64,000 nt of DNA from Patescibacteria group bacterium (GCA_018821245.1 JAHJMO010000026.1:15518-79517); one strand, 5' to 3'; numbered from the stretch's first letter, positions 25,277 to 57,614 are shown. The notes: generated by a model from the sequence alone, not told the origin. Translations and numbers: made by a program.

Positions 25277-25858
25277 ATGATTCCAACGGAAGATCAGTGC
25301 AGGCAATTGTGGGAAAAGTATCACTTGCCGGAAAAAAAGCGCCGGCACGTAGAGTTAGTGGCGTGCGTTGCGCGCTTTCTCTCTCAACAATTAACAATTA
25401 ACAATTCACAATTAACAATTAATCACTCGCTTCTTGTTGCCGGAGCGCTCCTTCATGATATTGACAGCAAAGTACCTAAATTATCTGGAGAAAAACATCC
25501 GGATGCAGGTGTGAGAGTTCTTAAAATTGAAGGTTTAGCAAAGATAGCGCAGTTAATTAAGACGCATGCTTTGCATACAATTCTTGATCGACATTCTTGT
25601 CCAAAAACCCTGGAAGAAAAAATTTTGTTTTTGGCGGATAAAATGGTCAAATACGATATCATTACGGTAGACGAGCGTTTCAGGTTGTGGGGGAATGAGT
25701 CTTTGTCAGACGCCGAACAGAGAGTTCTTCGCGCGGCTTACCCCAAGGTGAAAGCTCTTGAAAAAGAACTATTATATCTTGCCGGGATTGGAAGTCCGGG
25801 ACAGGTGGCAAAGTTGATCATGGAAGAGTATACTAACAAAAAGAAGGAGGGCGTATGA
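25277..25858 (+). CDS. HD-domain phosphohydrolase
   Basis: H...HD motif (ALLHDIDSK) and downstream conserved D/K; carries an in-frame 7-bp tandem repeat insertion (25386-25423) encoding QQLTINNSQLTINHS. Confidence 0.6.
   Translation: MIPTEDQCRQLWEKYHLPEKKRRHVELVACVARFLSQQLTINNSQLTINHSLLVAGALLHDIDSKVPKLSGEKHPDAGVRVLKIEGLAKIAQLIKTHALHTILDRHSCPKTLEEKILFLADKMVKYDIITVDERFRLWGNESLSDAEQRVLRAAYPKVKALEKELLYLAGIGSPGQVAKLIMEEYTNKKKEGV
25386..25423 (+). repeat. Tandem heptamer array (AATTAAC/AATTCAC) x5, in-frame inside the HD-domain CDS
   Basis: caattaa caattaa caattca caattaa caattaa; translates QQLTINNSQLTINHS. Confidence 0.8.
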
Positions 25859-26427
25859 AACATATATTACGAATGCTTGTTATCGTTATTGTATTCCTTT
25901 TTGTTCTGTTTGTTTCCGGAGTTGCCGGGGGGTCTGTCTCTGCGGTAGACACAACTCCAGTAGCGACCCAGGCGACAAGCGCGCAAGGCGCCAAAGAATA
26001 TTTTCTTCCCTACCCGGGTATCCTCCCTGACCATCCTTTATACAAGATAAAGCTAGTGCGCGATTGGATTTTAGAACGGATCATCGTAGACCCGATACGA
26101 AAAACAGAATTTTACATTCTTCAGGGTGATAAGCGCCTCAACATGGGGATTGCTCTTGTGGAAAAAGGAAACAGCGCGCTCGCTGGTGAAGTCATAAGTC
26201 AATCGGGAAACTTCATGGAACAAGCCATGCATACCCTCACTTCTATAAAGACTGCCGGTCGGGAAGTCCCTCTATATGTTTTGGAACATATGGAGAGTGC
26301 TCTCGTAAAACATAATGACGTATTAGAAACCATGCGGGTAAATCAAAGCGGCTCTGCAGAGAGCGTTATTATAGATGCACAGAAACACATACAGGCACTC
26401 CGGCAGGACATTGCAAAAGTCAGGTAG
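25855..26427 (+). CDS. Secreted/membrane-anchored hypothetical protein (DUF5667-like)
   Basis: N-terminal TM/signal anchor; YFLPYPGILPDHPLYKIK motif resembles DUF5667 proteins; overlaps the HD gene by 4 nt. Confidence 0.4.
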   Translation: MKHILRMLVIVIVFLFVLFVSGVAGGSVSAVDTTPVATQATSAQGAKEYFLPYPGILPDHPLYKIKLVRDWILERIIVDPIRKTEFYILQGDKRLNMGIALVEKGNSALAGEVISQSGNFMEQAMHTLTSIKTAGREVPLYVLEHMESALVKHNDVLETMRVNQSGSAESVIIDAQKHIQALRQDIAKVR

Positions 26428-26750
26428 GGAGCAAAAGACGGGGACAGAAAACACTTAATTTGTGGAAAAACATTGGTTTCCGAACACAAAAATTATTCCC
26501 CGGTTTGGCAATATCGCTCCGTTGTCATTTCCAACATTACATTCTCCGTAGTATTCCCTCAAACTATAACAGGTCGAGGCTAAGAATAGACCATGAAAGG
26601 TTTTGATATAGAAATTGCCAGTTGACGCCGCTTATTTAGTGTCTTAGGATGTTTAGTGGCACCACCTATAGCGTTTTAGTTTTCATGCTTCACCAGGTAC
26701 AGTAGTCGCGTTTTCGGGTGTTATAACGAAGTGAAGCATGATTTTTATTC

Positions 26751-27197
26751 ATGAAATGTCCATATTGCAATCATAACGACACTGACGTTATCGAGACGCG
26801 CGACAGCGAGGATCTGCGAGTTACCAGAAGGAGGAGGTACTGCGCGAAATGCGAAAAAAGGTTTACCACGTATGAACGGATTGAAAGTGTTCCGTTGACG
26901 GTTATCAAAAAGGACGAGCGCAGAGAAACATTTGACAGAGAAAAGCTTAAGCGAGGTATTTTGAGAGCCAGCGGTAAGACAAAAATTACAGCAGTTGACG
27001 TGGACCGCATCGTTGACGAAGTTGAAAGAGAGCTGATTTCCGGAGACTCAACCGAAGTAAAAAGCAAGCAGATTGGGCAATTAGTAGCCAAGAGGCTCAA
27101 GAAATTGGATAAAATTGCCTACATTAGATTTGCCAGCGTGTTTCGTCGTTTTCTGGACATAGAAGATTTTGAAAAGGAAGTGAAAAAATTGCTGTAA
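26751..27197 (+). CDS. nrdR: Transcriptional repressor NrdR
   Basis: MKCPYCNHNDTDVIETR...YCAKCEKRFTTYERIE zinc ribbon followed by an ATP-cone. Confidence 0.95.
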   Translation: MKCPYCNHNDTDVIETRDSEDLRVTRRRRYCAKCEKRFTTYERIESVPLTVIKKDERRETFDREKLKRGILRASGKTKITAVDVDRIVDEVERELISGDSTEVKSKQIGQLVAKRLKKLDKIAYIRFASVFRRFLDIEDFEKEVKKLL

Positions 27198-27225
27198 GCA
27201 ATTTTTTCATGGTGAGAATTTACGT

Positions 27226-29343
27226 ATGGTAAAAAAGACAATTACCAAAATTAAAAAGCGAAGCGGTCGGATTGTTAAGTTTAATCCGCTAAAAATCGTC
27301 AACGCGATTGAAAAGGCATTTAAGGCTATTGGTGAAAAGGATGGGGCAAGAGTCAAGGTATTGGCAGACAAAGCTGTCAAGAAACTTGAAGAGCGGTACG
27401 ATGGGAAGATTATTCCTCAGGTTGAAGAGATCCAAAATATTATTGAAGAGGTCTTAATGCAACACTGCCATTATGATGTGGCTCGGGCCTATATTTTATA
27501 CAGAGATCTTAAGAATCGCGTTCGTGATATTCACTCTTTGATTGACTCGGACGAACTCGTCGGCGATTATCTTTCCAAACTTGATTGGCGCGTCCGGGAA
27601 AATTCCAACATGGCCTATTCTCTTCAGGGGTTAAACAATCATGTCTCCTCGGTGGTTTCTGCCAATTATTGGCTTAACAAGATTTATCCCCCTCAGATTA
27701 GACAAGTCCATGTTGATGGCGATCTTCATATTCATAATTTACAGATGTTGGCAGCCTATTGCTGTGGTTGGGATTTAAAGGATCTTTTAGTCGGGGGTTT
27801 CGGGGGAGTTCCTGGCAAGATTGAGTGTAAACCGCCAAAGCATTTTCGGACTACATTAGGGCAGTTGGTTAATTTTTTTTATACGCTTCAGGGGGAAATT
27901 GCCGGCGCGGTGGCAGTTTCTAATTTTGATAGCCTTCTCGCACCTTTTATCGCCTTTGATGGTCTTTCCTATTCAGAAGTAAAACAATCTCTTCAAGAAT
28001 TTATTTTTAACATGAATGTCCCCACCAGGGTAGGTTTTCAAACGCCCTTTTCTAATGTTACCCTTGATCTTATTATTCCTGACTTTTTGGCCAAAGAACC
28101 GGTGATTATCGGAGGCATTCCACAAGGTAAAACGTATGAAGAGTTTCAAAAAGAAGTTGATGTATTCAACAAAGCCTTTGCCGAAGTGATGCTTGAAGGA
28201 GATGCGAAGGGGCGAGTTTTTACTTTTCCCATTCCCACCTATAGTATAACCCGCGATTTTAATTGGGATAATCCGATTTATAAAGGAATTTGGGAAATGA
28301 CCCGCAAATACGGCATTCCTTATTTTTCCAATTTTGTCAATTCGGATATGAAACCGGAAGATGTCAGGAGTATGTGCTGCCGGTTGAGATTGTCAACCAA
28401 AGAACTTCAACATCGGGGAGGAGGGCTTTTTGGCGCTAATCCGTTGACTGGAAGCCTTGGTGTCGTAACTCTTAATTTACCAAGGATTGGTTATCTCGCT
28501 AAAACGAAAAAAGAATATTTTGAGAAACTTTCTCACTTGATGGACCTGGCCAAAGAAGCCCTGCTTCTCAAAAGGACAGTAGTGGAGAAGTTTACCGAAG
28601 AAGGACTTTATCCGTACTCCAAAGTGTATTTGGGGGGAGTTAAAGGCCGCTTCGGCGAATATTGGAAAAATCACTTCAACACCATTGGTTTAATTGGTAT
28701 GAACGAATCGCTTCTTAACTTTATGAACAAGAATATCGGCGAGGAGGAGGGACGGGTCTTTGCAGAAGAAATTCTGGATTTTATGCGGACTAAACTTTTA
28801 ATATATCAAAAAGAAACTGACCAGATGTTTAATCTGGAAGCCACGCCTGCCGAGGGGACTTCTTATAATTTGGCCAGACTTGACAAGAAACTGTACCCTA
28901 AGATTATCTGTGCTAATGAAAAGGAAATCGGCAAAGATCATGCAGAACCTTTTTATACTAATTCAACACATCTGCCGGTTAATTTTACCGATGATATTTT
29001 TCAAGCTCTTGACCTTCAAGATAACCTCCAGACAAAATATACCGGCGGAACGGTTTTCCATGGATTTTTAGGGGAAAGCTTGCCGGATACGGTCGCCGTT
29101 AAAACCATGGTAAAAAAAATTGCCGAGCATTATCACCTTCCTTATTATACCTTAACCCCCACCTTTAGCGTTTGTCCCGGTCACGGTTATCTTAAAGGGA
29201 AACAGGATACATGTCAGGAGTGCGGCAAAACGTGTGAGGTTTGGTCAAGAATTGTTGGCTACTTACGACCGGTTGTTCAGTGGAATGTTGGGAAACAGGT
29301 GGAATTTGCAGAAAGGAAGACTTACCGGATTAAAACAACCTAA
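27226..29343 (+). CDS. nrdD: Anaerobic ribonucleoside-triphosphate reductase (class III) NrdD
   Basis: N-terminal ATP-cone; C-terminal Zn-ribbon CPGHGYLKG...CQECG and glycyl-radical motif RIVGYLRPV. Confidence 0.9.
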   Translation: MVKKTITKIKKRSGRIVKFNPLKIVNAIEKAFKAIGEKDGARVKVLADKAVKKLEERYDGKIIPQVEEIQNIIEEVLMQHCHYDVARAYILYRDLKNRVRDIHSLIDSDELVGDYLSKLDWRVRENSNMAYSLQGLNNHVSSVVSANYWLNKIYPPQIRQVHVDGDLHIHNLQMLAAYCCGWDLKDLLVGGFGGVPGKIECKPPKHFRTTLGQLVNFFYTLQGEIAGAVAVSNFDSLLAPFIAFDGLSYSEVKQSLQEFIFNMNVPTRVGFQTPFSNVTLDLIIPDFLAKEPVIIGGIPQGKTYEEFQKEVDVFNKAFAEVMLEGDAKGRVFTFPIPTYSITRDFNWDNPIYKGIWEMTRKYGIPYFSNFVNSDMKPEDVRSMCCRLRLSTKELQHRGGGLFGANPLTGSLGVVTLNLPRIGYLAKTKKEYFEKLSHLMDLAKEALLLKRTVVEKFTEEGLYPYSKVYLGGVKGRFGEYWKNHFNTIGLIGMNESLLNFMNKNIGEEEGRVFAEEILDFMRTKLLIYQKETDQMFNLEATPAEGTSYNLARLDKKLYPKIICANEKEIGKDHAEPFYTNSTHLPVNFTDDIFQALDLQDNLQTKYTGGTVFHGFLGESLPDTVAVKTMVKKIAEHYHLPYYTLTPTFSVCPGHGYLKGKQDTCQECGKTCEVWSRIVGYLRPVVQWNVGKQVEFAERKTYRIKTT

Positions 29344-29349
29344 GACCTC

Positions 29350-30063
29350 ATGCTTATCAAAGGCCTACAAAAAACAACCTTGCTCGATTACCCTGGAAAA
29401 GTTTCCTGTATCGTGTTTGTCGGCGGTTGCAACTTCCGCTGCCCCTTTTGTCATAATTCTGATTTAGTTTTGGAGCCACAAAAATTACCCACTATCGCAG
29501 AAGATGATTTTTTTAACTTTATAAAGACAAGAGTCGGGCTTTTAGATGGGGTGGTTATCACCGGTGGCGAGCCCACTCTTTACTCTGATCTTTCCCGGTT
29601 TATGAAAAAAGTAAAAGGCTTGGGTTTTTTGGTTAAATTGGATACCAATGGGAGTAATCCGGAGATGGTGAAAGAATTGATAAAAGATAGATTAGTGGAT
29701 TATATAGCAATGGACCTGAAGGGGCCGCTAAAGAAATATTACAAATATATTGGACAAAGTCAAAATCACGGTCGTAATGCAGAACATATTGAGACGAGTA
29801 TAAAGATTATTTCGGAAAGCAGAGTGGAGTTTGAATTAAGGACCACGGTGGTGCCGACGCTACACACGAAGAAAGACTTACTAGAGATGGCAAAGCAGCT
29901 AAATAATATTGGTAATGTTAAGTGGTATCTTCAGCAATTCAGTCCAAAACAATGTTTGGATCCAGGGTTTGAGAAAATTAAGCCATACCCAAAGAGTTTT
30001 TTTGAGGATTCACTATCCGAGATTAAAAAATATTTGTCGACAACATTTTTAAGGGGTGTTTAG
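29350..30063 (+). CDS. nrdG: Anaerobic RNR activating enzyme NrdG (radical SAM)
   Basis: CNFRCPFCHN radical-SAM cluster motif; directly follows nrdD. Confidence 0.85.
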   Translation: MLIKGLQKTTLLDYPGKVSCIVFVGGCNFRCPFCHNSDLVLEPQKLPTIAEDDFFNFIKTRVGLLDGVVITGGEPTLYSDLSRFMKKVKGLGFLVKLDTNGSNPEMVKELIKDRLVDYIAMDLKGPLKKYYKYIGQSQNHGRNAEHIETSIKIISESRVEFELRTTVVPTLHTKKDLLEMAKQLNNIGNVKWYLQQFSPKQCLDPGFEKIKPYPKSFFEDSLSEIKKYLSTTFLRGV

Positions 30064-30097
30064 TCTGACACAAGGGTCGGCCTCCTCGTATTTGTGA

Positions 30098-30123
30098 CAA
30101 ATAAACAAATATACAAATAAATG
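30098..30123 (+). repeat. Tandem octamer array CAAATAWA x3, intergenic nrdG-pduO
   Basis: caaataaa caaatata caaataaa. Confidence 0.6.
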
Positions 30124-30159
30124 ACTTAATAACAAAACGGTTGAATGATTTGTAGATTT

Positions 30160-30714
30160 ATGAATATCTATACCCGCGCCGGCGACAAAGGATTTACTTC
30201 TATTTTTGGTGGGAAGCGAGTTTTGAAATGCCACGAGCTTGTGGATACATATGGGTTCATAGACGAGCTAAATAGTTGGGTGGGGTTGATAATTTCACAA
30301 CTTAATAAAAACGATGAAACCCGATTTTTTGTAGAAGTTCAGAAGCAACTGCTTGCTATTGGAAGTAGTCTGGCCGGCTGGAAGGGTTTGAAAAAAGAAT
30401 TAGTAGAAAAACAAATCAAGAAGATGGAGATCAAAATAGATTTGATGGAAAAAACTCTTCCTACGATAAAAAATTTTGTTCTTCCAGGCGGATCACGCGT
30501 GGGATCAATAGTTCATATTGCCAGAAGTATTTGCCGTAGGGCCGAACGACAAACCGTTTCCTTGGCACAGAAACAAATAATACAACCGGAGATCATCAAA
30601 TACCTGAATCGCCTGTCGGACTTGCTTTTTGTTTTCGCACGGTTTATAAACAGTCAGGGCGGCGTCACCGAAGTCGTTTGGTCTGGAGACGCGTCCACAG
30701 AAAAGAAACGGTAA
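30160..30714 (+). CDS. PduO-type ATP:cob(I)alamin adenosyltransferase
   Basis: N-terminal IYTRAGDKGFTSIFGG matches the PduO/MMAB ATR signature (iYTrtGDkGeTsl); about 185 aa. Confidence 0.8.
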   Translation: MNIYTRAGDKGFTSIFGGKRVLKCHELVDTYGFIDELNSWVGLIISQLNKNDETRFFVEVQKQLLAIGSSLAGWKGLKKELVEKQIKKMEIKIDLMEKTLPTIKNFVLPGGSRVGSIVHIARSICRRAERQTVSLAQKQIIQPEIIKYLNRLSDLLFVFARFINSQGGVTEVVWSGDASTEKKR

Positions 30715-30715
30715 A

Positions 30716-30870
30716 GATAAGAGGAATCCAGTGTAAATCTGGGGCTGTGCCGCAACGGTAGCCCTGTCGATGTCGTTTTACGACATAATGACCGGGGAGC
30801 CCGGAACTCATCTTTACCAAAAACAATCCCGAGCAGGAGAACTACGCGTAAGCGGAGAATGGAAAAATCT
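30716..30870 (+). promoter_or_regulatory. Cobalamin (B12) riboswitch aptamer
   Basis: GAGGAATCCAGTGTAAATCTGGGGCTGTGCCGCAACGGTAGCC aligns almost base-for-base with the conserved core of the E. coli btuB leader (GGGAAUCCAGUGCGAAUCUGGAGCUGACGCGCAGCGGUAAGG). Downstream helices GTCGTTTTACGAC and CCGGGGAGCCCGG, and a B12-box-like AATCCCGAGCAGGAG. Confidence 0.7.
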
Positions 30871-30943
30871 ACAGAATCACTAACGTACGAATAGGCAACG
30901 AGTATTCGTTCGTAGAGGTCTTTCGTAGATTTTGACATAGGAT

Positions 30944-30973
30944 CCCTCTCGGGAAAGAGAGGGTTTTTTATTT
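30944..30973 (+). terminator. Intrinsic terminator (likely riboswitch expression platform)
   Basis: CCCTCTC-GGGAAA-GAGAGGG followed by TTTTTTATTT; ends 9 nt before the ATG at 30982 with the SD AGAGGA inside/after the U-tract. Confidence 0.7.
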
Positions 30974-30981
30974 AGAGGAAT

Positions 30982-32925
30982 ATGCCATTTGCACGCGCAG
31001 AACTACCGGGTATGGGGCCACAATCATCAGGATGTTCCTGTTCTGTTGATACCGGTCTTTGGGTGAACTTATATAACGAAATTTATGATGATGTAGCAGA
31101 AAAAATGAAACAGACAGGATTGTTTTTTAACGAAGAACACGTAAAACACGAAGCGAGTAAACGATTCATGTTGCATGTTTACCTGCCAGACATAAAGAGT
31201 GTTGTTAAAGAGTGGAGAGGCGACAAGGTGATGGACGGGACAGTATATGACGTGACTAATCATGGACTGGAGATAGTATGGAAAGGTGAGAGAATAACTG
31301 CGGAGTATGAATTTGTTCTGAAGCGTCGCTCAATGGGCCTGGAAGATCCAGATGAGACACGCACGTTCTACAGAGCGCAAAAGAAAATTCTCGCCTCACC
31401 GAATGCAGATGTGTGGTTTCCGGTACACGAAAAAGCAGACGGAGAAGACCGCATACGGTATGCGGCCCACTGGGTGCGGGACGGCAATCGCGTACGCGCG
31501 GAAACGCACCGTATAGCAGGTGACCGGGATTTAAGCCTAAAAGAAGCGCGTCAGGTCATACGAGAAAAGGTCGGCTCATATGCGCCGCATGAGACAAGCA
31601 AGACAGATGCGTCGTTTGTGTTTTCCAACATTCAGGAGGCGGATCATAGGAGGAAAACCTTGCAAGCGCAATATGATCACAACATAAAACAGCAGAAAGA
31701 TATCATTTCACCACAGGATATTGACATAAAGATGGTTCACGTCGAAAAAATATACAACCCCAACCGTCAAGTTGATGCGTATCCGGCCGAACATCGGGTA
31801 ATTCGTGATGCAGCCGACACTTTATTACATTCTTCTCAACGTATAACAAAAGACACTACGACAGCGAGTGTAGCGTTTGCTTCTTTTTTGCGTGAATCGT
31901 TCAGGAAAAAAAAGAGAATTGATGCCCGAAGTACCATAAAAAATATTGAGAGCAGGCGACAGCAGAAAGCAAAAGAAAAGTTCATATCACAGAAAATTTT
32001 GTCGTTCTTTCGTCAATCGCAACCAGAAAGACCGGAAGGAAAAATTCGCCACAAGGTAGCCCACTGGATGCGTCGTTTAGAAAACAACGTGGACACACAG
32101 CATGTTGTTCATGCCGTAGCGAACATGTCAGCTGGTATAAGAAAGAAAATTGTGTTGTTGAGTGATATAGTTTCAAAATTTTTTCCTTGGACGAGGGGCG
32201 CGACAGGAACATTGGAAGGCGGAGCTGCAAAACGCAGGACACAATCTATAAAGGAGAAACAAGGAGAGAGGGAAAGAGAGTTTAAAAAAGCCGGTTGGTT
32301 TATAAAGCTGTTCAAAAGAGAGAACGATAAGCAAGCAGTAGAGGAACATTGGAATATTATCTGCAAAGTGCAACCGTTGAAGGCAGAAAAAATATCGCCG
32401 TTTTACACAATGCTTCGTGCGCTGGCTGCAAAGCTTCAAATATTTCCCGTCGCTTCCAAGCGGGAGGGAATAGAAATTACCACACAACAGGTCAAAGAAA
32501 AACAAGAGCTGATGTCAGAAGAGATGCTTCCGGAAGACAATCACCTTGTTCGGGAGAAGTCAATAGATATGTTTGAAACAACAAGCGACTTTTTTGTTTC
32601 AGCTCTCTTATGGTATGTATTGTATGAAGCAGATGTAGTCAATTTCGACGCGCAGAACCCCAGTCTTGTTGATGAGAAAAATATTAATGTATCGATACAT
32701 CAATATAAGACAGAAAAATTGGTGCAGAGTACAGCAGGTGGAAATTGGATTCTGTTTTCTATTATTTGGTATCTGGCGATGATCCGCGAACAAGGGAAAA
32801 GACAAGGCGTGAAACAAAAGAAAAAAGGAGGATCGAAGAAAAAGACGATTATTTGGGATAGAAACACAACAAACCCACCGGCGATACTTCCGCAACACAA
32901 TATAATATTTGTTTTTCGTTCGTGA
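30982..32925 (+). CDS. Hypothetical 647-aa protein, highly charged, two C-terminal TM helices
   Basis: Long ORF immediately after the riboswitch and terminator; K/R/E/Q-rich; hydrophobic segments FFVSALLWYVLY and NWILFSIIWYLAMI near the C-terminus; no known domain recognised. Confidence 0.5.
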   Translation: MPFARAELPGMGPQSSGCSCSVDTGLWVNLYNEIYDDVAEKMKQTGLFFNEEHVKHEASKRFMLHVYLPDIKSVVKEWRGDKVMDGTVYDVTNHGLEIVWKGERITAEYEFVLKRRSMGLEDPDETRTFYRAQKKILASPNADVWFPVHEKADGEDRIRYAAHWVRDGNRVRAETHRIAGDRDLSLKEARQVIREKVGSYAPHETSKTDASFVFSNIQEADHRRKTLQAQYDHNIKQQKDIISPQDIDIKMVHVEKIYNPNRQVDAYPAEHRVIRDAADTLLHSSQRITKDTTTASVAFASFLRESFRKKKRIDARSTIKNIESRRQQKAKEKFISQKILSFFRQSQPERPEGKIRHKVAHWMRRLENNVDTQHVVHAVANMSAGIRKKIVLLSDIVSKFFPWTRGATGTLEGGAAKRRTQSIKEKQGEREREFKKAGWFIKLFKRENDKQAVEEHWNIICKVQPLKAEKISPFYTMLRALAAKLQIFPVASKREGIEITTQQVKEKQELMSEEMLPEDNHLVREKSIDMFETTSDFFVSALLWYVLYEADVVNFDAQNPSLVDEKNINVSIHQYKTEKLVQSTAGGNWILFSIIWYLAMIREQGKRQGVKQKKKGGSKKKTIIWDRNTTNPPAILPQHNIIFVFRS

Positions 32926-32943
32926 TATGATGAAGATATTCTT

Positions 32944-33405: not shown

Positions 33406-33407
33406 CC

Positions 33408-37234: not shown

Positions 37235-37306
37235 GCGCCCGTAGCTCAGCGGAAGAGCGCGTGTCTTATAAACACGAGGTGCTTGGATCGTCACCAAGCG
37301 GGCGCA
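37235..37306 (+). tRNA. tRNA-Ile (anticodon UAU, reads AUA)
   Basis: Cloverleaf: acceptor GCGCCCG/CGGGCGC (7 bp), D-arm GCTC/GAGC, anticodon stem CGTGT/ACACG with loop CTTATAA (anticodon TAT), 5-nt variable loop, T-arm CTTGG/CCAAG, discriminator A, no encoded CCA. T-loop ATCGTCA is non-canonical (A54/T58), so a tRNAscan check is needed. Confidence 0.6.
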
Positions 37307-37307
37307 C

Positions 37308-37343
37308 AATATTAAACAAATTAACAATTAACAATTAACAATG
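37308..37343 (+). repeat. Tandem heptamer array AATTAAC x4 between tRNA 3' end and the idi start codon
   Basis: attaaac aaattaac aattaac aattaac aATG; the last unit supplies the idi ATG context. Confidence 0.75.
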
Positions 37344-38008: not shown

Positions 38009-39139
38009 TTATGCCTCCCCAACTTCAACCGCCAGATCAGGAACAGCCGTAATTTTTTTCCAGTCAGTTGATTTTCCGCGGAAAAAAGCATAAGCCCCGA
38101 TGTAGGCGGCGTTGTCGGTACAGAGTTCCGGAGACGGCACGTGAATTGTTATATTGTTAAATTGTTTTATTGTTGAAAAAAACTTTTCTCTAAGACGGAT
38201 ATTTGCTGCAACCCCGCCGGAGAGCAAAATACTTTTTGCTTTATATTTTTGAGCCGCCCGCAGTGTTTTTTCGACCAAAACATCAGTTATTGCTTCCTGA
38301 ACCTCGTAAGATGATTGTTCTATTGTTCTATTGTTATATTGTTGATTACGTTTCAGTTTATCGATCTCACGAAGAATGGCGGTTTTAAGGCCGCTGAAGG
38401 AGAAGTTAAGAGAATCATCGTTTAACATAGGGCGAGGGAGGGGAATCGTGAATTGTGAATTATGAATTGTGAATTTAGCAGCTGTTTCTTGGATGGCAAC
38501 ACCACCTCTATTGCCAAATCCAAGCAGTCTCGCAGCTTTGTCAAAACATTCTCCAGCGGCGTCATCCAGCGTTCCGCCGAGCCAGCATAGTTCCTTAACT
38601 GATTTCATTAGATAAAGTTCGGTGTGCCCACCGGAAACAACAAGAGATATGGCAGGGAATTTAATTGTTTTGTCATCCCAGACTTGATCGGGGATCTGCG
38701 TTTTTGAAGTCAGATTCCCGTCTTCGCGGGAATGACAAGAAAGCGGCTCAAGAAAATTCGCATACATGTGCGCCAGCACGTGATTGACGGGGATTATGGG
38801 TTTGTCGGTTACATACGCAATGGTTTTGGCGGTTTCAACGCCTGTCAGAAGCGAGCCTATCAACCCCGGCCCGACTGTCACGGCAATGGCGTCAATAGAA
38901 TCATTGATACATTGAAACATTGATACATTGACACCTGTTTTTAACGGTTTTAACGCTTCAATGATGACAGGGATGACGCACTTGAGTTGCTCGCGGGCGG
39001 CAACTTCCGGCACTATCCCGCCGTATTTTTCATGCATCGCCGAGGATGAAGCCACGACATTGCTTAATATTTTCGTTCCATCCTGAACTACGGAAGCAGC
39101 CGTCTCGTCACAAGAAGTTTCGATAGCGAGGATTTTCAT
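38009..39139 (-). CDS. tsaD: tRNA N6-adenosine threonylcarbamoyltransferase TsaD (Kae1/Gcp family)
   Basis: MKILAIETSCDETAASVV N-terminus, HxxGH-type metal motif region (SGGHTELY), C-terminal GG..AN motif; carries four in-frame AT-rich tandem-repeat insertions. Confidence 0.9.
   Translation of the reverse strand: MKILAIETSCDETAASVVQDGTKILSNVVASSSAMHEKYGGIVPEVAAREQLKCVIPVIIEALKPLKTGVNVSMFQCINDSIDAIAVTVGPGLIGSLLTGVETAKTIAYVTDKPIIPVNHVLAHMYANFLEPLSCHSREDGNLTSKTQIPDQVWDDKTIKFPAISLVVSGGHTELYLMKSVKELCWLGGTLDDAAGECFDKAARLLGFGNRGGVAIQETAAKFTIHNSQFTIPLPRPMLNDDSLNFSFSGLKTAILREIDKLKRNQQYNNRTIEQSSYEVQEAITDVLVEKTLRAAQKYKAKSILLSGGVAANIRLREKFFSTIKQFNNITIHVPSPELCTDNAAYIGAYAFFRGKSTDWKKITAVPDLAVEVGEA
38143..38176 (-). 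repeat. Tandem 8-mer array (AACAATWW) in-frame in tsaD, insertion 1
   Basis: Coding strand aacaataa aacaattt aacaatat aacaattc; encodes TIKQFNNITIH. Confidence 0.7.
38314..38346 (-). repeat. Tandem 8-mer array (AACAATAN) in-frame in tsaD, insertion 2
   Basis: Plus strand attgttct attgttct attgttat attgttga; encodes NQQYNNRTIEQ. Confidence 0.7.
38448..38476 (-). repeat. Tandem heptamer array (AATTCAC/AATTCAT) in-frame in tsaD, insertion 3
   Basis: Plus strand gtgaatt gtgaatt atgaatt gtgaatt; encodes KFTIHNSQFTIP, closely matching the HD-protein insert. Confidence 0.8.
38903..38934 (-). repeat. Tandem 8-mer array (CATTGAWA) in-frame in tsaD, insertion 4
   Basis: cattgata cattgaaa cattgata cattgaca; encodes NVSMFQCINDSI. 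Confidence 0.65.
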
Positions 39140-42621: not shown

Positions 42622-43563
42622 ATGAAGATTACCGTCCGTGAATCATTTTTGGCTACCATCGCGTACGCCGATATATTTGACTACCCTCTTACACTAGAAG
42701 AGTGTGATATGTGGCGCATCTGCACCCCTAATACTGATTCACGGATTCATGAATGGTCAAATATAGTAACGAGACTAAAAAAGCGCGACAGGATTTTTTA
42801 TAGCCTTCGAAGAGATAGGTCTATCATAGATAAACGGGAAGACCGCGCCCGGTGGTCAGCAAAAAAAATCAATATAGCCCGACGCATGGCGCGCGTTTTG
42901 CGTTTCATCCCTACCATCAGGCTTATAGGAGTTACAGGCGGATTGGCTATGTATAATACCGAAAAAAACGATGATATAGATTTTTTCTGTATAGCCGCAA
43001 GCGGTACTCTGTGGATAAGCCGTTTTTTGGCAGTAGCGTTTATGGAGGTATTCGGACGCCGCCGCCGGCCGGCAGATGTGCGCGTGAAAGACAAAATCTG
43101 TCTGAACATGTTTATGTCAGAAGACGCACTGTGTGTTCCTGTACAAGAACAGGATTTGTACACGGCCCACGAGGTATTGCAGATGAGGGTATTATGGGAA
43201 AGAGGTGGGGTATACAGGGCCTTTTTGCGTGCTAACGGTTGGGTACGGAATTTTCTTCCGAATGCGTGGGAAGAAAGTTCACAGTTCATAGTTCATAGTT
43301 CACAGAAAAAACCCAAAAATAAATTATTTAAAAAAATCTTAGGGGTTTTGCTGTTAACTATTAACTATTTACTAATAACTATTGAGTCAATTGCAAAATT
43401 GGCTCAACTTTGGTATATGCAAAAACATCGGACTACGGAAGTGGTTACCGACACCATGATTCGTTTCCATCCGAAAGATGCTCGCCGCCGGGTAAGAGCG
43501 GCACTTGGGAAACGATTGAAACAGTGGAACATCCCCCTTGACAATATATTTTATGACCGTTAA
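42622..43563 (+). CDS. Hypothetical protein with Pol-beta-like nucleotidyltransferase signature
   Basis: GVTGGLAMY...DIDFFCIA resembles the hG[GS]...DxD minimal NTase motif; contains two in-frame tandem heptamer insertions (43276-43305, 43354-43386). Confidence 0.4.
   Translation: MKITVRESFLATIAYADIFDYPLTLEECDMWRICTPNTDSRIHEWSNIVTRLKKRDRIFYSLRRDRSIIDKREDRARWSAKKINIARRMARVLRFIPTIRLIGVTGGLAMYNTEKNDDIDFFCIAASGTLWISRFLAVAFMEVFGRRRRPADVRVKDKICLNMFMSEDALCVPVQEQDLYTAHEVLQMRVLWERGGVYRAFLRANGWVRNFLPNAWEESSQFIVHSSQKKPKNKLFKKILGVLLLTINYLLITIESIAKLAQLWYMQKHRTTEVVTDTMIRFHPKDARRRVRAALGKRLKQWNIPLDNIFYDR
43276..43305 (+). repeat. Tandem heptamer array AGTTCAY x4, in-frame in the 42622-43563 CDS
   Basis: agttcac agttcat agttcat agttcac; encodes SQFIVHSSQ. 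Confidence 0.75.
43354..43386 (+). repeat. Tandem heptamer array WTTAACT x4-5, in-frame in the 42622-43563 CDS
   Basis: ttaacta ttaacta tttacta ataacta ttgag; encodes LTINYLLITIE. Confidence 0.7.
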
Positions 43564-45607: not shown

Positions 45608-45623
45608 AAGTTCATAGTTCATA
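45608..45623 (+). repeat. Tandem heptamer AGTTCAT x2, 2 nt after the groEL stop
   Basis: agttcat agttcat ag; same unit as 43276-43305. Confidence 0.55.
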
Positions 45624-45648
45624 GAAAAACAAGATATAAAAATACAAA

Positions 45649-48448: not shown

Positions 48449-48512
48449 TCACAGCATTAACTACTATTTGTTTTTCTTGTTTGTCCGATTTTTTACCCGA
48501 TCATTTATATAT

Positions 48513-48893: not shown

Positions 48894-49060
48894 ACTTTTT
48901 TTATACTAAACATGCTATAGCAAGTCAAGAATAAAATATTTTATTAACACAAAGCATGCGCCGCAGGGGAAAAGCATTATTTGTGAATTGTTGGCGAAAG
49001 GCAGAACTGATAGTATTGATAAGGGCATAAAGCAGGTAGCAAAATAAGAAAAAGCAAATC

Positions 49061-49834: not shown

Positions 49835-49855
49835 CCACTCTCTGTCCTTTGTGCT

Positions 49856-50773: not shown

Positions 50774-50776
50774 TAG

Positions 50777-52752: not shown

Positions 52753-52754
52753 AG

Positions 52755-53144
52755 TTAAGTGACAATGAATAAAATATTTATCAACGTCGCCAGAGTCATG
52801 ATATTTACGAGTATCGACGTAAGCTGAAGCACTTTGGTGAATGTGGGGTGATCTTGTGTTATTGTCGTTGCTGCACCAACATTGGTTAGATAGATACAAA
52901 GACTTGAAAATGGAAGTAAAAAGAGCCACCCCGGATGAGCAAGCTGTTCCTCTCCCCATGGGCGGCTGTACCATAGCGGCACGGCAGGCGGGAGCAATTG
53001 CCAGGAAGATACAATTGCCGCGCAGGAAATGATGAAGCCCGTGACAGAAGTAATGGTAGCAATTTTACCGATCCATCCGCTATGGAATTGTCGTAAAACA
53101 CCAGACACGAGTACGCGTGAAGGAAATTTTGGCGCTATGGTCAT
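52755..53144 (-). CDS. Small hypothetical membrane protein
   Basis: 129 aa, 3-4 TM helices, embedded in the glycosyltransferase operon. Confidence 0.4.
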   Translation of the reverse strand: MTIAPKFPSRVLVSGVLRQFHSGWIGKIATITSVTGFIISCAAIVSSWQLLPPAVPLWYSRPWGEEQLAHPGWLFLLPFSSLCIYLTNVGAATTITQDHPTFTKVLQLTSILVNIMTLATLINILFIVT

Positions 53145-53153
53145 AGGTTTTTG

Positions 53154-54515
53154 TTATTGTGCGAGCGGTATAGCAGCATCCAGTTTATATACAATTTCAA
53201 ATGTTCCGTCCTCTTGGACAAGGAAAGCACGCATAGGGTATGGAGGGAAATCGTTGACTAATTGATCGGAAGACACTATGGCATCTCCTACGTACCATGG
53301 AAATGGCGAACCATGCGGATTGTAGAGGTATACGCGATCGCCGGTAAGTGAAGATCCGGGAGGGCGTACGCTGTAATATATAGACTCGAAAAAGATAAGC
53401 GGACTTGCGGCGAGAATGACATCATCGTCTTTATAGAGAACCAGTATCTGTTCGAAGGTATTTCGGATAGGAAGTTTGGGGTGGTGAGCTGGATACCACA
53501 GGCTAAAAGCTATGACGAAGATTGTCATCACCGATGCCAACGCTGCTCGGAATTTTTCCCTCTTCACGCTGCCGATGGCAAATATCACGACGAAGACTTC
53601 ACTTATAGAGACGGGTATAAGGTAACGGTTGACAAACATGGGCTTAACAAACGAGATGCCCACAATAACGGCAAGAGGAACAAAAATCATCCAAAGAAAA
53701 AACAGGACGAGCCGCCGGTTTTTTTTCTTCCGAAGTGCAAGAACGAAAAAGCTTATTAATATTAGCGATAGCCATGCCGTATATTTCCATCCATACCATG
53801 GGGTTCCCTCATAACCCAGGAACATATTTCCGAGGACTGACTTAATAAGCTGGAAATTTACCGGGAAAAACCAGGATTGTCTAAGCCGCGATAGTTCTCT
53901 GATGATTTTGATAAGCCAAGGAGCGATGAACAGGCCTATTGCGGCAAAAGACAGGACGTGCGGATCGCGACATATTGTGCTTATGCTTTTACGCTTTTTG
54001 GCAGAAATAACCTCCGTAGTCATCCAGTGCAACGCTTGAGCAAAGAGGAATACTGTGAAGTAGATATGGGTGTAGCATCCGAGAGTTGACCATATGACGT
54101 ACCAAACCCAGCGCTTTTTGCAATAGGCATACATTGATGCGGTTGCAAAAAATATATACCAACCATATGCCCGTACCTCAAAAGCATAGTAGAGAAGCAT
54201 GGGGTTTGTGAAGAAGAAAAGAGGCATGAACCACGAAAGCCAATGTTTTTTGAACAATTGTTCTGCCCAAACAATGACGATGAGTGTGGCAAGCGCAAAC
54301 CCCAAAAGAGATAAACTTCTGGCAGCGACTTCACCCGTGCCAAACACTTTGAGCCAGAAGTGCAAGAGCGCATAGTAGACAGGCGGTTCAAACCCGAGGT
54401 TTTTTACGATAAACGGAAGCGATCGCTGTGCCGTAAGGATAGAAAACGCTTCATCACGCCAAAGAGACTGGGTTAAATACAATAAAGGGCTGTGGTTTAA
54501 TAAAAAATTAAACAT
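53154..54515 (-). CDS. GT-C fold membrane glycosyltransferase (ArnT/PMT-like)
   Basis: N-terminal loop motif RDEAF after the first TM, about 11 TM helices, same family architecture as the 10136-11749 gene. Confidence 0.65.
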   Translation of the reverse strand: MFNFLLNHSPLLYLTQSLWRDEAFSILTAQRSLPFIVKNLGFEPPVYYALLHFWLKVFGTGEVAARSLSLLGFALATLIVIVWAEQLFKKHWLSWFMPLFFFTNPMLLYYAFEVRAYGWYIFFATASMYAYCKKRWVWYVIWSTLGCYTHIYFTVFLFAQALHWMTTEVISAKKRKSISTICRDPHVLSFAAIGLFIAPWLIKIIRELSRLRQSWFFPVNFQLIKSVLGNMFLGYEGTPWYGWKYTAWLSLILISFFVLALRKKKNRRLVLFFLWMIFVPLAVIVGISFVKPMFVNRYLIPVSISEVFVVIFAIGSVKREKFRAALASVMTIFVIAFSLWYPAHHPKLPIRNTFEQILVLYKDDDVILAASPLIFFESIYYSVRPPGSSLTGDRVYLYNPHGSPFPWYVGDAIVSSDQLVNDFPPYPMRAFLVQEDGTFEIVYKLDAAIPLAQ

Positions 54516-54535
54516 TTTTTAAGCACCTATCTCTA

Positions 54536-56017
54536 TTATATCTTTTCCGTAACCCGATATTCCAGACGTTTGCCCAGAAGCAGTCGGGTATGTGCATCAA
54601 GTCCCGGGAGAGCAGAAAGAAAGAAAGAAATGACCGGTAACGTGATCCATTGCAAATACAGGAGCGGTAGCTTCCAGCGTGGGTAATTCTGTGGCCGTGG
54701 CGGTTTGATGCGCCAGTCGATCATAAATACGACAATAAGAAAGATAGTAGAAAGCGTAAGTATGCTCGAAGAAATCCTGGCCAGATTATGCCCCAGGACT
54801 GTCCGGCCGAAAAGCGGATTGATCAAAGGCGGGATGGTGCTTCCGATAGTCAAAAGAAACCAATTAGCCGGCCAGAAAATATGATGCTCCATCAGAATCA
54901 ATAAGCGCTTGACCCGGTCAATCAATGAAATTTCCGTATGAAGCACGGCACCTCTGATGACATATGGTATATCCGCCACTCCCCAAGCCCAACGTTTCGC
55001 CTGTTCGTATTGGTTGATAAATGTAGGGAAAAACCCACGGCTTTCTGCTGCATCGACTAATATGGGAAGAAAAATCGGCTCGACGTGCACCTTATCACCA
55101 AGTTCAAAATATATTTTGAAGAACATATGATAATCTTCGGGAATGACATCGACAGACCAAAAACCTACCTTGGCAGCAGTAGCGTATGGTAAAGAATAGG
55201 TAGAAAAGTTTATTAACCTGTTTTTTTGAGAAAGAATAGCCAGATTCCAAATGCTATTTAATGTGTTAAGAAACCTGTTAGGGAGGGGGATGCGCCAGAT
55301 ATTATTGTGGAAAAGTATAGCACCCTGCCAAAGGTGAAATTTCCGATTCGGATCTGTCAAAAACTTATAGGAAAGACAAGAAAAATATTTCGGGTGCAGA
55401 AGGGCATCAGCGTCACATGACGTGACGGTGGTAAAATTAATCGGAATCTTTTTCTTCTGAAGATACCCGACAATGCTTTTTGCGGCATGAGCCATATTGG
55501 AAGATTTGCCTGCGATTTCTCCGTAATGAAGGACATGTCTGGTAATCAGGAAATGTCCAAAGCCCGCGCCGAAATCGCTCTTTAGTTGTCCGGCTACTTT
55601 TCTGGCGTTACTGTCTTTGTCCTCGGTAGCCAATACGATGATAAGTCGTTCTTTAGGAAAATCCTGGTGAGCAAGATTTTCCAGTGTGCGACGGAGTATG
55701 TGGATCGGTTCCTTGTACTCCGGAATAATGACGATATGATGGAGTTTCCCCCAATTGGGCAAAACTTGAGCGAGCTTTTTCCAGTCGACAGCGGTGTGGG
55801 CGGTAAGATTCACAAATGATCGAAGAGAGTGGACAACAAGGGCTAGTGATTTGTAGAACCAATAGACGTCAAAGGTAATAATTACATATGCTACCATCGC
55901 AGGGTGCCAGAAAGACAGCCAAAAAGGAAGGGTAATCAACATCCATGAGGAGGACGGCACTAATATCTCCAATGCCCGGCGGGTCTTATTTGGATACAAT
56001 TTGAATAATCGGCGCAT
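54536..56017 (-). CDS. Processive GT2 family glycosyltransferase (cellulose-synthase-like)
   Basis: DAD-type motif (SCDADALL), Q-x-x-RW motif (YEQAKRWAWG), flanking TM helices. Confidence 0.7.
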   Translation of the reverse strand: MRRLFKLYPNKTRRALEILVPSSSWMLITLPFWLSFWHPAMVAYVIITFDVYWFYKSLALVVHSLRSFVNLTAHTAVDWKKLAQVLPNWGKLHHIVIIPEYKEPIHILRRTLENLAHQDFPKERLIIVLATEDKDSNARKVAGQLKSDFGAGFGHFLITRHVLHYGEIAGKSSNMAHAAKSIVGYLQKKKIPINFTTVTSCDADALLHPKYFSCLSYKFLTDPNRKFHLWQGAILFHNNIWRIPLPNRFLNTLNSIWNLAILSQKNRLINFSTYSLPYATAAKVGFWSVDVIPEDYHMFFKIYFELGDKVHVEPIFLPILVDAAESRGFFPTFINQYEQAKRWAWGVADIPYVIRGAVLHTEISLIDRVKRLLILMEHHIFWPANWFLLTIGSTIPPLINPLFGRTVLGHNLARISSSILTLSTIFLIVVFMIDWRIKPPRPQNYPRWKLPLLYLQWITLPVISFFLSALPGLDAHTRLLLGKRLEYRVTEKI

Positions 56018-56054
56018 AACAGCAGTCTAATTATAACACGAGGAATAAGAATTG

Positions 56055-56750
56055 TTAGCGGATGTCAGGAAATCCGATTTTATCCGCCCGTCGGAACAAA
56101 AAATAATAAGTAAATGCCTTAAATATCCGCCAGAGAAGCACCGGGCCTTCATTGCCCCGCCGTCCCGAGCTTAAGACAACGAGATCTTGTCGAAAAATAA
56201 CGTTCCCTTGGGACTTTAATCTCCTCATCATTTCCAGATCTTCGGCAATCTTAAATTCCGGGGGGAATCCGCCAACCGCCCTGCCCGCGTCAGTTTTAAA
56301 AGCCATGTTTTGTCCGGCGGCCATCAGGATACCAAGCCAGTAAAGAATCTGATTAGCAATCTGCTGGATGGTGTTAACCCAAAACCGATACACCCACCAG
56401 CCGGAAGGTACGCGAAAAGTACCAAAAACCCCTACGACACCCGGGCTGCTCAAGGTTGTATGGATTTTAGTCAGCCAATCGGCAGGTACGACAGTATCAG
56501 CATCGGTGTAAGCGGTAATCTCGCTTTTGACGATTTCAAGCCCCTTTTGCCGGGCAAAACCGATTCCACGATGGGGGACCCGAAGAACTTTAGCACCCAT
56601 TTTCCCGGCGATCTCAGCGGTTTTATCTGTGGACATTCCGTCGACAACGATAATTTCGCTTGGTGGAGTGTCTAATTTTTGCAGCGATCTGAGCGTAGTC
56701 GGCAAATATTTTTCTTCGTTAAATGTTGGAATGACGACAGAGATGGTCAT
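56055..56750 (-). CDS. GT2 glycosyltransferase (dolichyl/polyprenyl-phosphate sugar synthase-like)
   Basis: MTISVVIPTFNEEKYL, VVDGMSTD, YTDADTV (DxD); 231 aa GT-A fold. Confidence 0.8.
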   Translation of the reverse strand: MTISVVIPTFNEEKYLPTTLRSLQKLDTPPSEIIVVDGMSTDKTAEIAGKMGAKVLRVPHRGIGFARQKGLEIVKSEITAYTDADTVVPADWLTKIHTTLSSPGVVGVFGTFRVPSGWWVYRFWVNTIQQIANQILYWLGILMAAGQNMAFKTDAGRAVGGFPPEFKIAEDLEMMRRLKSQGNVIFRQDLVVLSSGRRGNEGPVLLWRIFKAFTYYFLFRRADKIGFPDIR

Positions 56751-56762
56751 ATTTTAAAAATA

Positions 56763-56788
56763 GAGATACTAAGATATTAGGATACTAG
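56763..56788 (+). repeat. Tandem 8-mer array RGATAYTA x3, intergenic between GT2 and tatD
   Basis: agatacta agatatta ggatacta gg. Confidence 0.55.
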
Positions 56789-56798
56789 GAAAAGAACA

Positions 56799-57584
56799 TT
56801 AAGGCAACCCAAAAAGCGCACGGGCATTACGCATGACTGTTTCCTCAATTGTTTTAACCGGAATATTTTTTAGTTCTGCAGCGCGTCTGGCTATAAGAGG
56901 GATATACTTCGGTTCGTTGCGGGAGCCGCGGTGGGGAACAGGGGTAAGGTACGGTGCGTCTGTTTCCAAAAGTAACATTTCTAAAGGAATGTGGGGAACA
57001 ATCATCTGAAGTTGTTTAGAATATGTAACATTACCGTCAATACCCACATACATCCCGTATTCCTTAATCATTCTCAGATCCTGTAACCCGCCGGAAAAAC
57101 AATGGAAAACGCCGGCCGGCATTTTCGGCAGGTTATCCAGAACATGAAAGCAGTCCGCAAAAGCTTCGCGGCAGTGGATAATCACTGGCAGATTATGTTT
57201 AAGCGCCAACAAAAGCTGTTCTTCAAACAATATTTTTTGTACATCTTTCCTGCCCGCTGCTAACTCACCTTTATACATGTGATAATCAAGCCCGCATTCG
57301 CCGATGGCGATAATAGTTCTTGGTTCATAGTTATTAGTTCTGAGAAAAGATTCTAGTTTGCTTATGTCAGGTTCATGAACTGCTTCATAAGGGTGGAAGC
57401 CGACCGCGGCATAAACTACGCCGGGATATTTTTGGGACAGCTCGATTGCGGTTTTAGAGAAGTAGAGATCACAGCCCGGGTTAATGAATTTTTTGACCCC
57501 GGCTTTTTTGGCGTTGCCGATGACCATTGCCCGGTCTTGGTCATATTCCTTGAAGTTGAGGTGGCAGTGAGTATCGATGTACAT
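56799..57584 (-). CDS. tatD: TatD-family metal-dependent deoxyribonuclease
   Basis: MYIDTHCHLNF N-terminus and conserved His/Glu/Asp metal ligands across 261 aa. Confidence 0.9.
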   Translation of the reverse strand: MYIDTHCHLNFKEYDQDRAMVIGNAKKAGVKKFINPGCDLYFSKTAIELSQKYPGVVYAAVGFHPYEAVHEPDISKLESFLRTNNYEPRTIIAIGECGLDYHMYKGELAAGRKDVQKILFEEQLLLALKHNLPVIIHCREAFADCFHVLDNLPKMPAGVFHCFSGGLQDLRMIKEYGMYVGIDGNVTYSKQLQMIVPHIPLEMLLLETDAPYLTPVPHRGSRNEPKYIPLIARRAAELKNIPVKTIEETVMRNARALFGLP

Positions 57585-57587
57585 ACA

Positions 57588-57614
57588 ATGCTAAATGATA
57601 AATGACCAATACTA
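57588..57614 (+). repeat. Tandem heptamer-like array (TAAATGA/CTAAATA), filling the tatD-metG intergenic gap
   Basis: ctaaatga taaatgac caatac taaata; occupies almost the whole 34-nt spacer. Confidence 0.5.

Follow-up and report, generated by a model that had tools for sequence, protein, structure and literature searches.

Heptanucleotide tandem arrays within tsaD and other genes of a Gottesmanbacteria-like Patescibacterium

Simple sequence repeats (SSRs) built of heptanucleotides are over-represented in many bacteria, and slippage linked to the footprint of the polymerase has been put forward as a hypothesis for this excess (PMC4692102, citing Mrazek 2007). The present work deals with short tandem arrays of 7- or 8-nt units that are scattered through the genes and spacers of a 64,000-nucleotide stretch of DNA (hereafter the window) from a Patescibacteria group bacterium (GCA_018821245.1, JAHJMO010000026.1:15518-79517), and above all with those that are translated in frame within tsaD. 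Like the heptameric long SSRs of prokaryotes, for which a slippage origin has been proposed (PMC4692102), these arrays consist of a few head-to-tail units, 7 nt being the commonest unit length. They also display the traits by which prokaryotic long SSRs are recognized, i.e. head-to-tail units of 5-11 nt in at least three copies, a frequency above random and a prominent period 7. However, the cases described are mostly intergenic, whereas about two thirds of the arrays found here are in frame within coding sequences (CDSs), most of them in one essential gene; furthermore, they are conserved in position across phyla, evolve in concert and are about nine times denser. They are classed here as heptameric SSRs, a known kind, the new traits being that they are embedded in coding sequence, deeply conserved in position and evolving in concert.

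Two other groups of heptamers invite comparison. The short tandemly repeated repetitive (STRR) sequences of cyanobacteria and the GGGAATC/GGGGAYT repeats of Xanthomonas and Nostoc share with the arrays a heptamer period, the occupation of the same spacers in related species and the turnover of sequence and length (PMC4692102), but they are G-rich, intergenic and often long, use one or few units genome-wide and have G-quadruplex potential, whereas the present arrays are G-poor, coding and locus-specific. None of the STRR and G-rich units (CCCCAGT, TTGGTCA, CAACAGT; GGGAATC, GGGGAYT) matches any consensus unit returned for the window by Tandem Repeats Finder (TRF). The TAACTGA repeats of Beggiatoaceae, Cyanobacteria and Bacteroidetes, for which binding by S1, Csp or CsrA has been proposed, comprise 2-6 heptamers, many of them located a few nucleotides 5' of start codons like the array at 37319 (PMC4679880). 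Unlike the arrays described here, which are mostly in CDSs, they have one fixed genome-wide unit and are almost only intergenic. TRF detects no TAACTGA array in the window, although some of its intergenic arrays do abut start codons.

Translation of a DNA-level repeat at surface positions of unrelated housekeeping proteins is also known from the Rickettsia palindromic elements (RPEs), but these are dispersed palindromic copies of 100-150 bp that belong to one family, whereas the arrays are direct tandem repeats of 30-35 nt with locus-specific units (PMC10969869). The inverted repeats and dispersed family that characterize RPEs and MITEs (miniature inverted-repeat transposable elements) occur in one separate insert within tsaD only, and not in the arrays. 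Phase-variable SSR loci (PMC3315296) likewise carry non-triplet tandem units in or beside genes; in contrast to them, the arrays show no copy-number polymorphism, have housekeeping hosts and, when genic, are always in frame. Heptamers are not discussed in PMC3315296 or PMC4060949, and a literature search of incomplete coverage found nothing on heptamer arrays in genomes of the candidate phyla radiation (CPR) or on conserved in-frame non-triplet arrays.

Abundance and reproducibility of the arrays

The source organism is a Gottesmanbacteria-like Patescibacterium, thus a member of the CPR, and the nearest named relative of its TsaD (67% identity) belongs to Candidatus Gottesmaniibacteriota. Arrays were detected with TRF as tandem repeats of period 7 or 8. 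A preliminary description of the window had listed twelve loci, and TRF returns an array of period 7 or 8 at every one of them, three being weak. The null model consisted of 100 order-3 Markov simulations of the window. At a TRF score of at least 40, the window contains 10 arrays of these periods, where the simulations give 0.02 on average and 1 at most; at a score of at least 30, it contains 16, where they average 2.9 and never exceed 8. As the simulations yield almost none at the higher threshold, nine of the listed loci lie far above chance. The three weak ones, at 45608 (2.3 copies), 57588 (2.7 copies) and 56763 (83% matches), are in the range of chance.

The groEL gene of the window was found on contigs of four independent assemblies, namely ENA ERZ27247117, Logan SRR6514730, Logan SRR10598174 and GCA_018829345.1, the last being an NCBI assembly labelled 'Patescibacteria group bacterium'. 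These assemblies align with the window over 4.5-21.7 kb, each with one mismatch and zero gaps. Since all four agree without gaps, the arrays are real and their copy numbers reproducible; an assembly artefact, which the preliminary description had named as a reason to discard the arrays should the assembled reads lack them, is ruled out. Two of their contigs, JAHJUP010000007.1 and SRR10598174_34155, have their start precisely at 43276/43277, on the AGTTCAY array, which is the expected effect in de Bruijn assembly of a short repeat shared with 45609. Short-read assemblies thus appear to be broken by micro-arrays.

The bias towards heptamers extends beyond the window. CPR tsaD loci (718 kb) hold 137 TRF arrays of period 7, for 6 of period 6, 20 of period 8 and 22 of period 9. 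A scan of a genome collection with the TsaD alignment gave matches that, among those listed, come mostly from distant non-CPR loci and were used as a mixed-bacteria control set; among the matches listed, these loci (1.16 Mb) hold 24 arrays of period 7 and 3 of period 8. As this control also shows an excess of period 7, the heptamer excess is general in bacteria, and it is roughly nine times stronger in CPR loci. A scan of metagenomes added 80 further TsaD loci, with 37-65% identity. Array density reaches 0.96/kb inside tsaD for 0.071/kb in its flanks, a 13.5-fold difference. The length of the period-7 arrays has its mode at 31-33 nt (about 4.5 units), both in and outside tsaD (loci L091-L170 and the window), and the arrays are G-poor (4.8% G). 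In arrays of period 8 the number of units is about 3.8; it is thus less steady than the total length, which is about 30-33 nt.

Loop sites of TsaD and other locations of the arrays

TsaD homologues range from 330 to 435 aa. A few loops are responsible for most of the differences, and internal repeats of 7 or 8 residues are present in many of the peptides of these loops. All 88 arrays located inside tsaD fall at six sites, which correspond to residues 20-29, 70-80, 130-159, 220-229, 260-279 and 320-330 of the window protein; the site at residues 220-229 alone accounts for 33 of them. In the AlphaFold (AF2) model, whose mean predicted local distance difference test score (pLDDT) is 83, the six sites are coil, loop or low-confidence segments. 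Site D is placed in a loop between H314-324 and E331-333, and site E at a helix-loop-helix junction. A beta-hairpin was considered for site C and rejected, the model predicting coil with moderate confidence.

The DNA of syntenic relatives carries arrays at the corresponding positions of tsaD. The window, L086 and L090 share arrays of period 8 with a CAATG core at site A. A period of 8 (AACAATNN) is also seen at site E, both in the window and in L086, where the array reads AACAATGT. At site C, the period is 7 and the unit is CACAATT in the window, CACAATA in L090 and GAAAATT in L088. Among the matches listed in the genome-collection scan, period-7 arrays occupy site C in L005 (51% identity), in a Wildermuthbacteria metagenome-assembled genome (MAG; L015, 40% identity) and in a Saccharibacteria MAG (L033). 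Over all TsaD loci scanned, the 42 nt that precede LPRP show a 7-nt periodicity of at least 0.6 in 36 loci, and the lineages with a site-C array include Gottesmanbacteria, Wildermuthbacteria and Saccharibacteria. When these 36 arrays are cut in a single register relative to the Leu codon, they give the consensus NNAAATT over exactly five units; the 7-nt frames that flank them have identities at random level (0.21-0.26). The TsaD of non-CPR bacteria has the usual G-N-P-K-A-x-x-F-P-R segment with zero periodicity.

The codon register of the TsaD and HD hydrolase arrays is the same even in relatives with as little as about 40% identity, contrary to the recent insertion that the preliminary description implied. 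It had also regarded identical inserts in many lineages as a sign of ancient protein linkers. The positions are indeed shared, but the sequences differ, and each shows an internal periodicity in its DNA. Among TsaD loci of the LPRPM type (the CPR type), about one in two is devoid of the array or has a GC-rich palindrome in its place. Where site C has no heptamers, a perfect GC-rich inverted repeat often codes for the loop, e.g. GGCAGAGGTCAGACCTCTGCC or GCCCGTCCTTCGCGAGTTCGCGAAGGACGGGC, as in the CPR loci L154, L132, L125, L163, L134, L138, L153, L162 and L085. Two DNA-level structures, heptamer array and GC-rich palindrome, therefore alternate at one protein loop.

Seven arrays of the window are in frame inside CDSs as first described, one in the HD hydrolase gene, four in tsaD and two in the gene of a 313-aa protein. 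Homologues of the HD hydrolase, many of them from Gottesmanbacteria, have 7-aa repeats coded by heptamers at the site of the 25386 array, e.g. KCQMLNAKCQIN, KLKAQNSKLKIN and QLTINNSQLTIN, and in one homologue (P0193) exactly 7 aa, the equivalent of three units, are missing. In related CPR loci, in-frame arrays outside tsaD are found in genes of class I aminoacyl-tRNA synthetases, PheRS beta, RecG and GyrA. Such host genes lie in L129 (3337-5547), L168 (9274-11640), L170 (7725-10220), L137 (908-3115) and L134 (12185-14677); in L168, three arrays are located within one synthetase gene.

Spacer arrays often abut a start or stop codon and are not conserved between orthologous spacers. L088 and L090 lack the array located 5' of the NUDIX gene, their tRNA adjoining the ATG, and L085 has a different 8-mer array at this place, over the start codon. 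Likewise, the array at the 3' end of groEL is absent in L085, L086 and L088. This array and those of the 313-aa protein are lineage-specific.

Evolution of the units and candidate explanations

The arrays are a DNA-level phenomenon and undergo concerted evolution at the DNA level. At site C, unit identity is 0.79 within an array versus 0.52 between species in the same register. Between the window (CACAATT) and L090 (CACAATA), one unit position (T vs A) differs in all five units, which yields F<->Y, S<->T and the synonymous ATT<->ATA changes together. Further variants spread over a whole array are CGAAATC, ACAAATC, AGAAACC, ACAAACT and ACAAACC. The encoded peptides diverge strongly (KSEIRNPKSEIK, KPETRNQKPEIK, KFTIHNSQFTIP, KLQTTNYKLQTK), the only recurrent residues being Lys, Ile and Asn, which are read from the AAATT core in three frames. 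Pairwise identities being unreliable for partial genes, unit difference was related to identity for individual pairs only. A 7-nt period that runs through three frames, with co-varying synonymous sites, is not produced by selection on the protein, whereas a DNA copying process can produce it. Changes common to all units of an array, synonymous positions included, thus support the DNA-level origin proposed from the start, and the near-alike peptides of unrelated proteins result from the translation of similar A-rich units.

These data also bear on the possibility that the arrays are protein modules, i.e. that 12-residue K-x-x-I-x-N-x-K-x-x-I-K loops have a function in the TsaD, HD hydrolase and synthetases of CPR bacteria, such as contacts with tRNA or partners, the DNA periodicity being only the historical way of making them. 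We consider this unlikely. The positions of Lys, Ile and Asn and the loop length are conserved, the sites are fixed loops and the hosts are often tRNA-handling enzymes, but the residues between K, I and N are free to vary (KSEIRNP, KPETRNQ, KFTIHNS, KLQTTNY) and the identity of 7-nt periods and synonymous positions goes beyond what protein selection can do. Furthermore, the array is absent or replaced in about half of the LPRPM-type loci, as seen above, and the AF2 model offers only coil of moderate confidence at site C.

The genic arrays are translated and filtered by selection against in-frame stops. Each peptide was tested against all 16,384 heptamers, with shuffled peptides as control. A single heptamer explains at least 8 residues in 50 of 119 TsaD peptides (0 of 119 after shuffling) and in 29 of 110 HD hydrolase peptides (1 of 110 after shuffling). 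As the heptamer runs through three frames, any stop trinucleotide that it contains comes in frame once per three units. In the HD array, whose unit AACAATT contains TAA, the unit located at the would-be in-frame TAA is AATTCAC (TAA -> TCA, Ser); in L088, AAATTGA becomes AAATTGT at the critical copy (TGA -> TGT, Cys). Among the 88 tsaD arrays, 33 consensus units have a stop trinucleotide on the coding strand and 65 on the opposite strand, shuffled units having one in 58% of cases.

The claim that the A-rich strand is always the coding strand holds as a bias (73:15 in tsaD, 20:9 in other open reading frames, ORFs) and not as a rule, the arrays of the 313-aa gene having A = T. Most of this bias is accounted for by the avoidance of stop trinucleotides on the coding strand. 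Almost all of the window has a positive GC skew, and the arrays of tsaD, a minus-strand gene, are nevertheless A-rich on the minus strand; the orientation therefore follows transcription, not replication.

The arrays are stable in length. No array indel was found among the four assemblies of the window strain, nor any difference in copy number among three strains of a Gottesmanbacteria relative (L087-L089), in which only N-gaps differ. Ten protein clusters at 90% identity or more revealed no array indel either, their length differences corresponding to start or end calls, and none of 164 tsaD loci is frameshifted. Among these consensus assemblies, the phase variation or slippage-prone hypervariability suggested by the preliminary description is thus not seen. 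That the arrays are contingency loci, hypermutable repeats that toggle genes by frameshift, is accordingly the least probable of the explanations considered and hardly credible to us. It would agree with non-multiple-of-three units inside reading frames and with the heptanucleotide phase-variable repeats known in Haemophilus, but the arrays are hosted by housekeeping genes, no close strain or assembly differs in copy number, none of the 164 tsaD loci is out of frame and the arrays have only 4-5 units, which are interrupted.

Unit similarity is 4.79/7 within genomes versus 4.63/7 between genomes, a marginal difference (permutation p=0.045), and the existence of a genome-specific master unit was rejected, this signal being only marginal. 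Within the same genomes, the TsaD and HD arrays have different units. This makes it very improbable that the arrays are copies or footprints of a small mobile element, as initially suggested, or templated additions made by a dedicated enzyme in many genes. Several loci of the window do have similar units (AATTMAC at 25386, 37319 and 38443; AGTTCAY at 43276 and 45609), some arrays are lineage-specific, and a real MITE-like palindromic insert is found within the same tsaD gene. However, the units are locus-specific, the arrays have neither terminal inverted repeats, target duplications nor shared flanks, and those at homologous sites hold their register across phyla.

In our opinion, the arrays are probably, if by no means certainly, the CPR form of the bacterial heptamer excess, i.e. 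heptanucleotide (and some octanucleotide) SSRs of about 4-5 units and 30-35 nt. Read in three frames, the heptamer of a genic array gives a peptide that repeats every 7 residues in a surface loop. Neighbouring units would misalign in the course of replication or repair, which would copy unit variants along the array and so homogenise it. This could proceed by slippage, by transient misalignment with templated correction and realignment, or by slip-out and slip-back, a unit being lost and regained through short-lived frameshifted intermediates. If the slip rates of known SSRs are assumed, a rough estimate allows two-step slip-backs to be as frequent as point mutation in a 35-nt array, and the homogeneity of arrays could therefore persist. 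The length would be locked and the sequence homogenised, one-unit length changes being selected out because an essential gene loses its frame when a slip shifts it by 7 or 8 nt. The arrays themselves would have no nucleic-acid function, the proteins would tolerate variable loops, and a weak constraint at the protein level would bear on the Lys, Ile and Asn codons provided by the conserved AAATT core.

Several points weigh against this explanation by slippage. No slippage event was observed, and no copy-number variation at divergence below 10%. Slips of 21 nt keep the frame but would make alike only every third unit, so that a length-neutral conversion step has to be inferred for adjacent units. 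Neutral slippage predicts neither the length peak at 31-33 nt, in and outside tsaD, nor the sharp five-unit boundaries at site C, the 13.5-fold concentration in tsaD or the conservation of the AAATT core, and frame-locking gives no reason for period 7 (and 8) over 4, 5, 10 or 11. In addition, the patterns of the metagenome scan included array-coded peptides, which may have caused a mild ascertainment bias toward array-bearing TsaD; the unbiased genome scan gives the same site-C arrays among the matches listed.

Owing to these weak points, a function as nucleic acid stays alive as an explanation, albeit with a low probability. The arrays could be selected cis-acting elements, i.e. unstructured, G-poor, A-rich periodic tracts of mRNA or single-stranded DNA. 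They could act as a platform for some protein whose domains each cover 7-8 nt (cold-shock, S1, OB-fold) or, in tsaD, whose product makes t6A for ANN-decoding tRNAs, as ANN-codon-rich sensors; unit turnover would then reflect co-evolution, or drift at non-contact positions. Several traits of the arrays agree with this: the core AAATT and the period are kept over deep divergence, the size is uniform at about 32 nt outside tsaD too, the orientation is biased relative to transcription, and the arrays, for which no RNA structure is predicted, would be fully unstructured. Furthermore, intergenic arrays often abut start or stop codons like the TAACTGA repeats of Beggiatoaceae (PMC4679880), and arrays are concentrated in tsaD and present in aminoacyl-tRNA synthetase genes. 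Against this, the units found at different sites of a genome are about as unlike as those of separate genomes, a diversity incompatible with recognition by one trans-acting factor; orthologous spacers do not share their intergenic arrays, and no candidate factor has been identified. Stop-codon avoidance accounts for the orientation bias, and the AAATT core can be explained by Lys, Ile and Asn codons and A-rich composition. The arrays may be binding sites of a sequence-specific protein, as the preliminary description also suggested; compared with protein-binding repeat arrays such as iterons, DnaA-box clusters or promoter elements, their unit is not constant and no promoter-like enrichment was found. 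No enrichment speaks for a promoter or terminator role at the arrays, and the only Rfam families in the window are tRNA and a cobalamin riboswitch, none at arrays. A more specific version is rather improbable: the A-rich tracts of about 32 nt in tsaD and other tRNA-handling genes across the CPR would be read by a single-strand-binding protein with several domains or else by the ribosome, for which they would act as ANN-codon sensors linking the synthesis of TsaD to t6A status. If it is true, the protein loops are passengers of an RNA-level signal kept since the early CPR radiation.

Non-triplet tandem repeats are usually thought to be purged from essential genes or to serve as on/off switches. 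The CPR arrays persist in frame for apparently phylum-scale time. If they are SSRs homogenised by misalignment, their sequence is governed by a DNA copying process, selection policing only stop codons and a few residues. They would then provide a natural example of protein segments dictated by repeat dynamics and not by function, a route to new loops, and a means to measure misalignment-driven conversion in uncultivated bacteria whose repair is reduced. The look-alike low-complexity peptides that arrays encode can also mislead homology searches and the annotation of CPR proteins.

Arrays and other features of the window

The features located in the window are gathered in the table below. Two gene labels given at first are not retained: the 313-aa protein has no Pfam match, which leaves the label 'NTase-like' unsupported, and the gene called idi scores as a NUDIX hydrolase.

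Table. Period-7 and period-8 arrays of the window and other features mentioned in the text, in order of position
Feature	Position	Strand	Remarks
Heptamer array AAAAGTC x4.4	12843-12873	+	Absent from the preliminary list; 1 nt past stop codon, between convergent genes
Heptamer array AACAATT x5.3	25386-25422	+	In frame in HD-domain hydrolase CDS (25277-25858); encodes QQLTINNSQLTINHS
Anaerobic ribonucleotide reductase (NrdD) and radical-SAM activase	27226-30063		Just upstream of the cobalamin adenosyltransferase gene and riboswitch
Octamer array ACAAATAA x3.1	30097-30121	+	Spacer between radical-SAM gene (end 30063) and cobalamin adenosyltransferase gene (start 30145)
Cobalamin riboswitch aptamer	30698-30829		RF00174, 38 bits
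647-aa ORF	30982-32925		No Pfam match
tRNA-Ile	37235-37307		Anticodon TAT (UAU)
Heptamer array AATTAAC x3.4	37319-37342	+	Fills gap between tRNA-Ile(TAT) and NUDIX start codon (37341)
tsaD CDS	38009-39139	-	376 aa, MKILAIETS...; four arrays and one palindromic insert
Octamer array ATTGTTAT x3.8, tsaD site D	38145-38174	-	Coding strand NNAACAAT; aa ~322-333, STIKQFNNITIH
Octamer array ATTGTTCT x3.8, tsaD site E	38314-38343	-	Coding strand AACAATAG/T; aa ~266-275, QQYNNRTIEQ
Heptamer array GAATTGT x4.7, tsaD site C	38443-38475	-	Coding strand CACAATT; aa ~221-232, KFTIHNSQFTIP, directly before LPRPM
Palindromic insert in tsaD	38660-38743	-	~70-80 nt, in frame; residues ~133-158, encodes LSCHSREDGNLTSKTQIPDQVWDDK
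24-nt unit x2 in tsaD	38796-38841		TRF, 82% matches
Octamer array CATTGATA x3.8, tsaD site A	38902-38931	-	CAATG core and 3-nt variable part; aa ~68-79, GVNVSMFQCIN
Heptamer array AGTTCAC (AGTTCAY) x4.3	43276-43305	+	In frame in 313-aa protein, SSQFIVHSSQ; lineage-specific
Heptamer array TTAACTA x4.3	43354-43383	+	In frame in variable region of 313-aa protein, LLLTINYLLITIES
Weak array AGTTCAT x2.3	45609-45624	+	Directly 3' of groEL stop codon (45606)
Weak to moderate octamer array GATACTAG x3.2	56765-56790		83% matches; spacer between GT2 gene and tatD
Weak array AATGATA x2.7	57587-57605		Score 31, chance level; tatD-metG spacer
Weak array	57915-57945		Absent from the preliminary list; TRF

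The palindromic insert of tsaD is bounded by inverted repeats (TTGTCATTCC...GGGATGACAA) and encloses a perfect hairpin (ATTCCCG-CGAAGA-CGGGAAT); its AlphaFold pLDDT is below 50. The core of the hairpin is also present in L007, L028 and L082 and within the tsaD of L091. The insert resembles an element of the RPE/MITE type that entered the gene in frame, and it is not one of the tandem arrays. The 24-nt unit that TRF finds twice in tsaD lies in the conserved GVETAKT...VTDKP region and may reflect either chance or an ancient duplication that kept the frame. In a relative, tsaD is called as two ORFs, P0123/P0125 (80 aa and 246 aa; ENA contig of 10,017 bases, P0011 cluster), the first of which ends at site A; either a gap in the scaffold or a true interruption of the gene at an array site may be the cause.

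Isoleucine tRNAs with the anticodon UAU are rare in bacteria. A tRNA nearly identical to that of the window is located 5' of the NUDIX gene in the Gottesmanbacteria relative L088. The cobalamin riboswitch overlaps the end of the cobalamin adenosyltransferase gene and is followed downstream by the 647-aa ORF.

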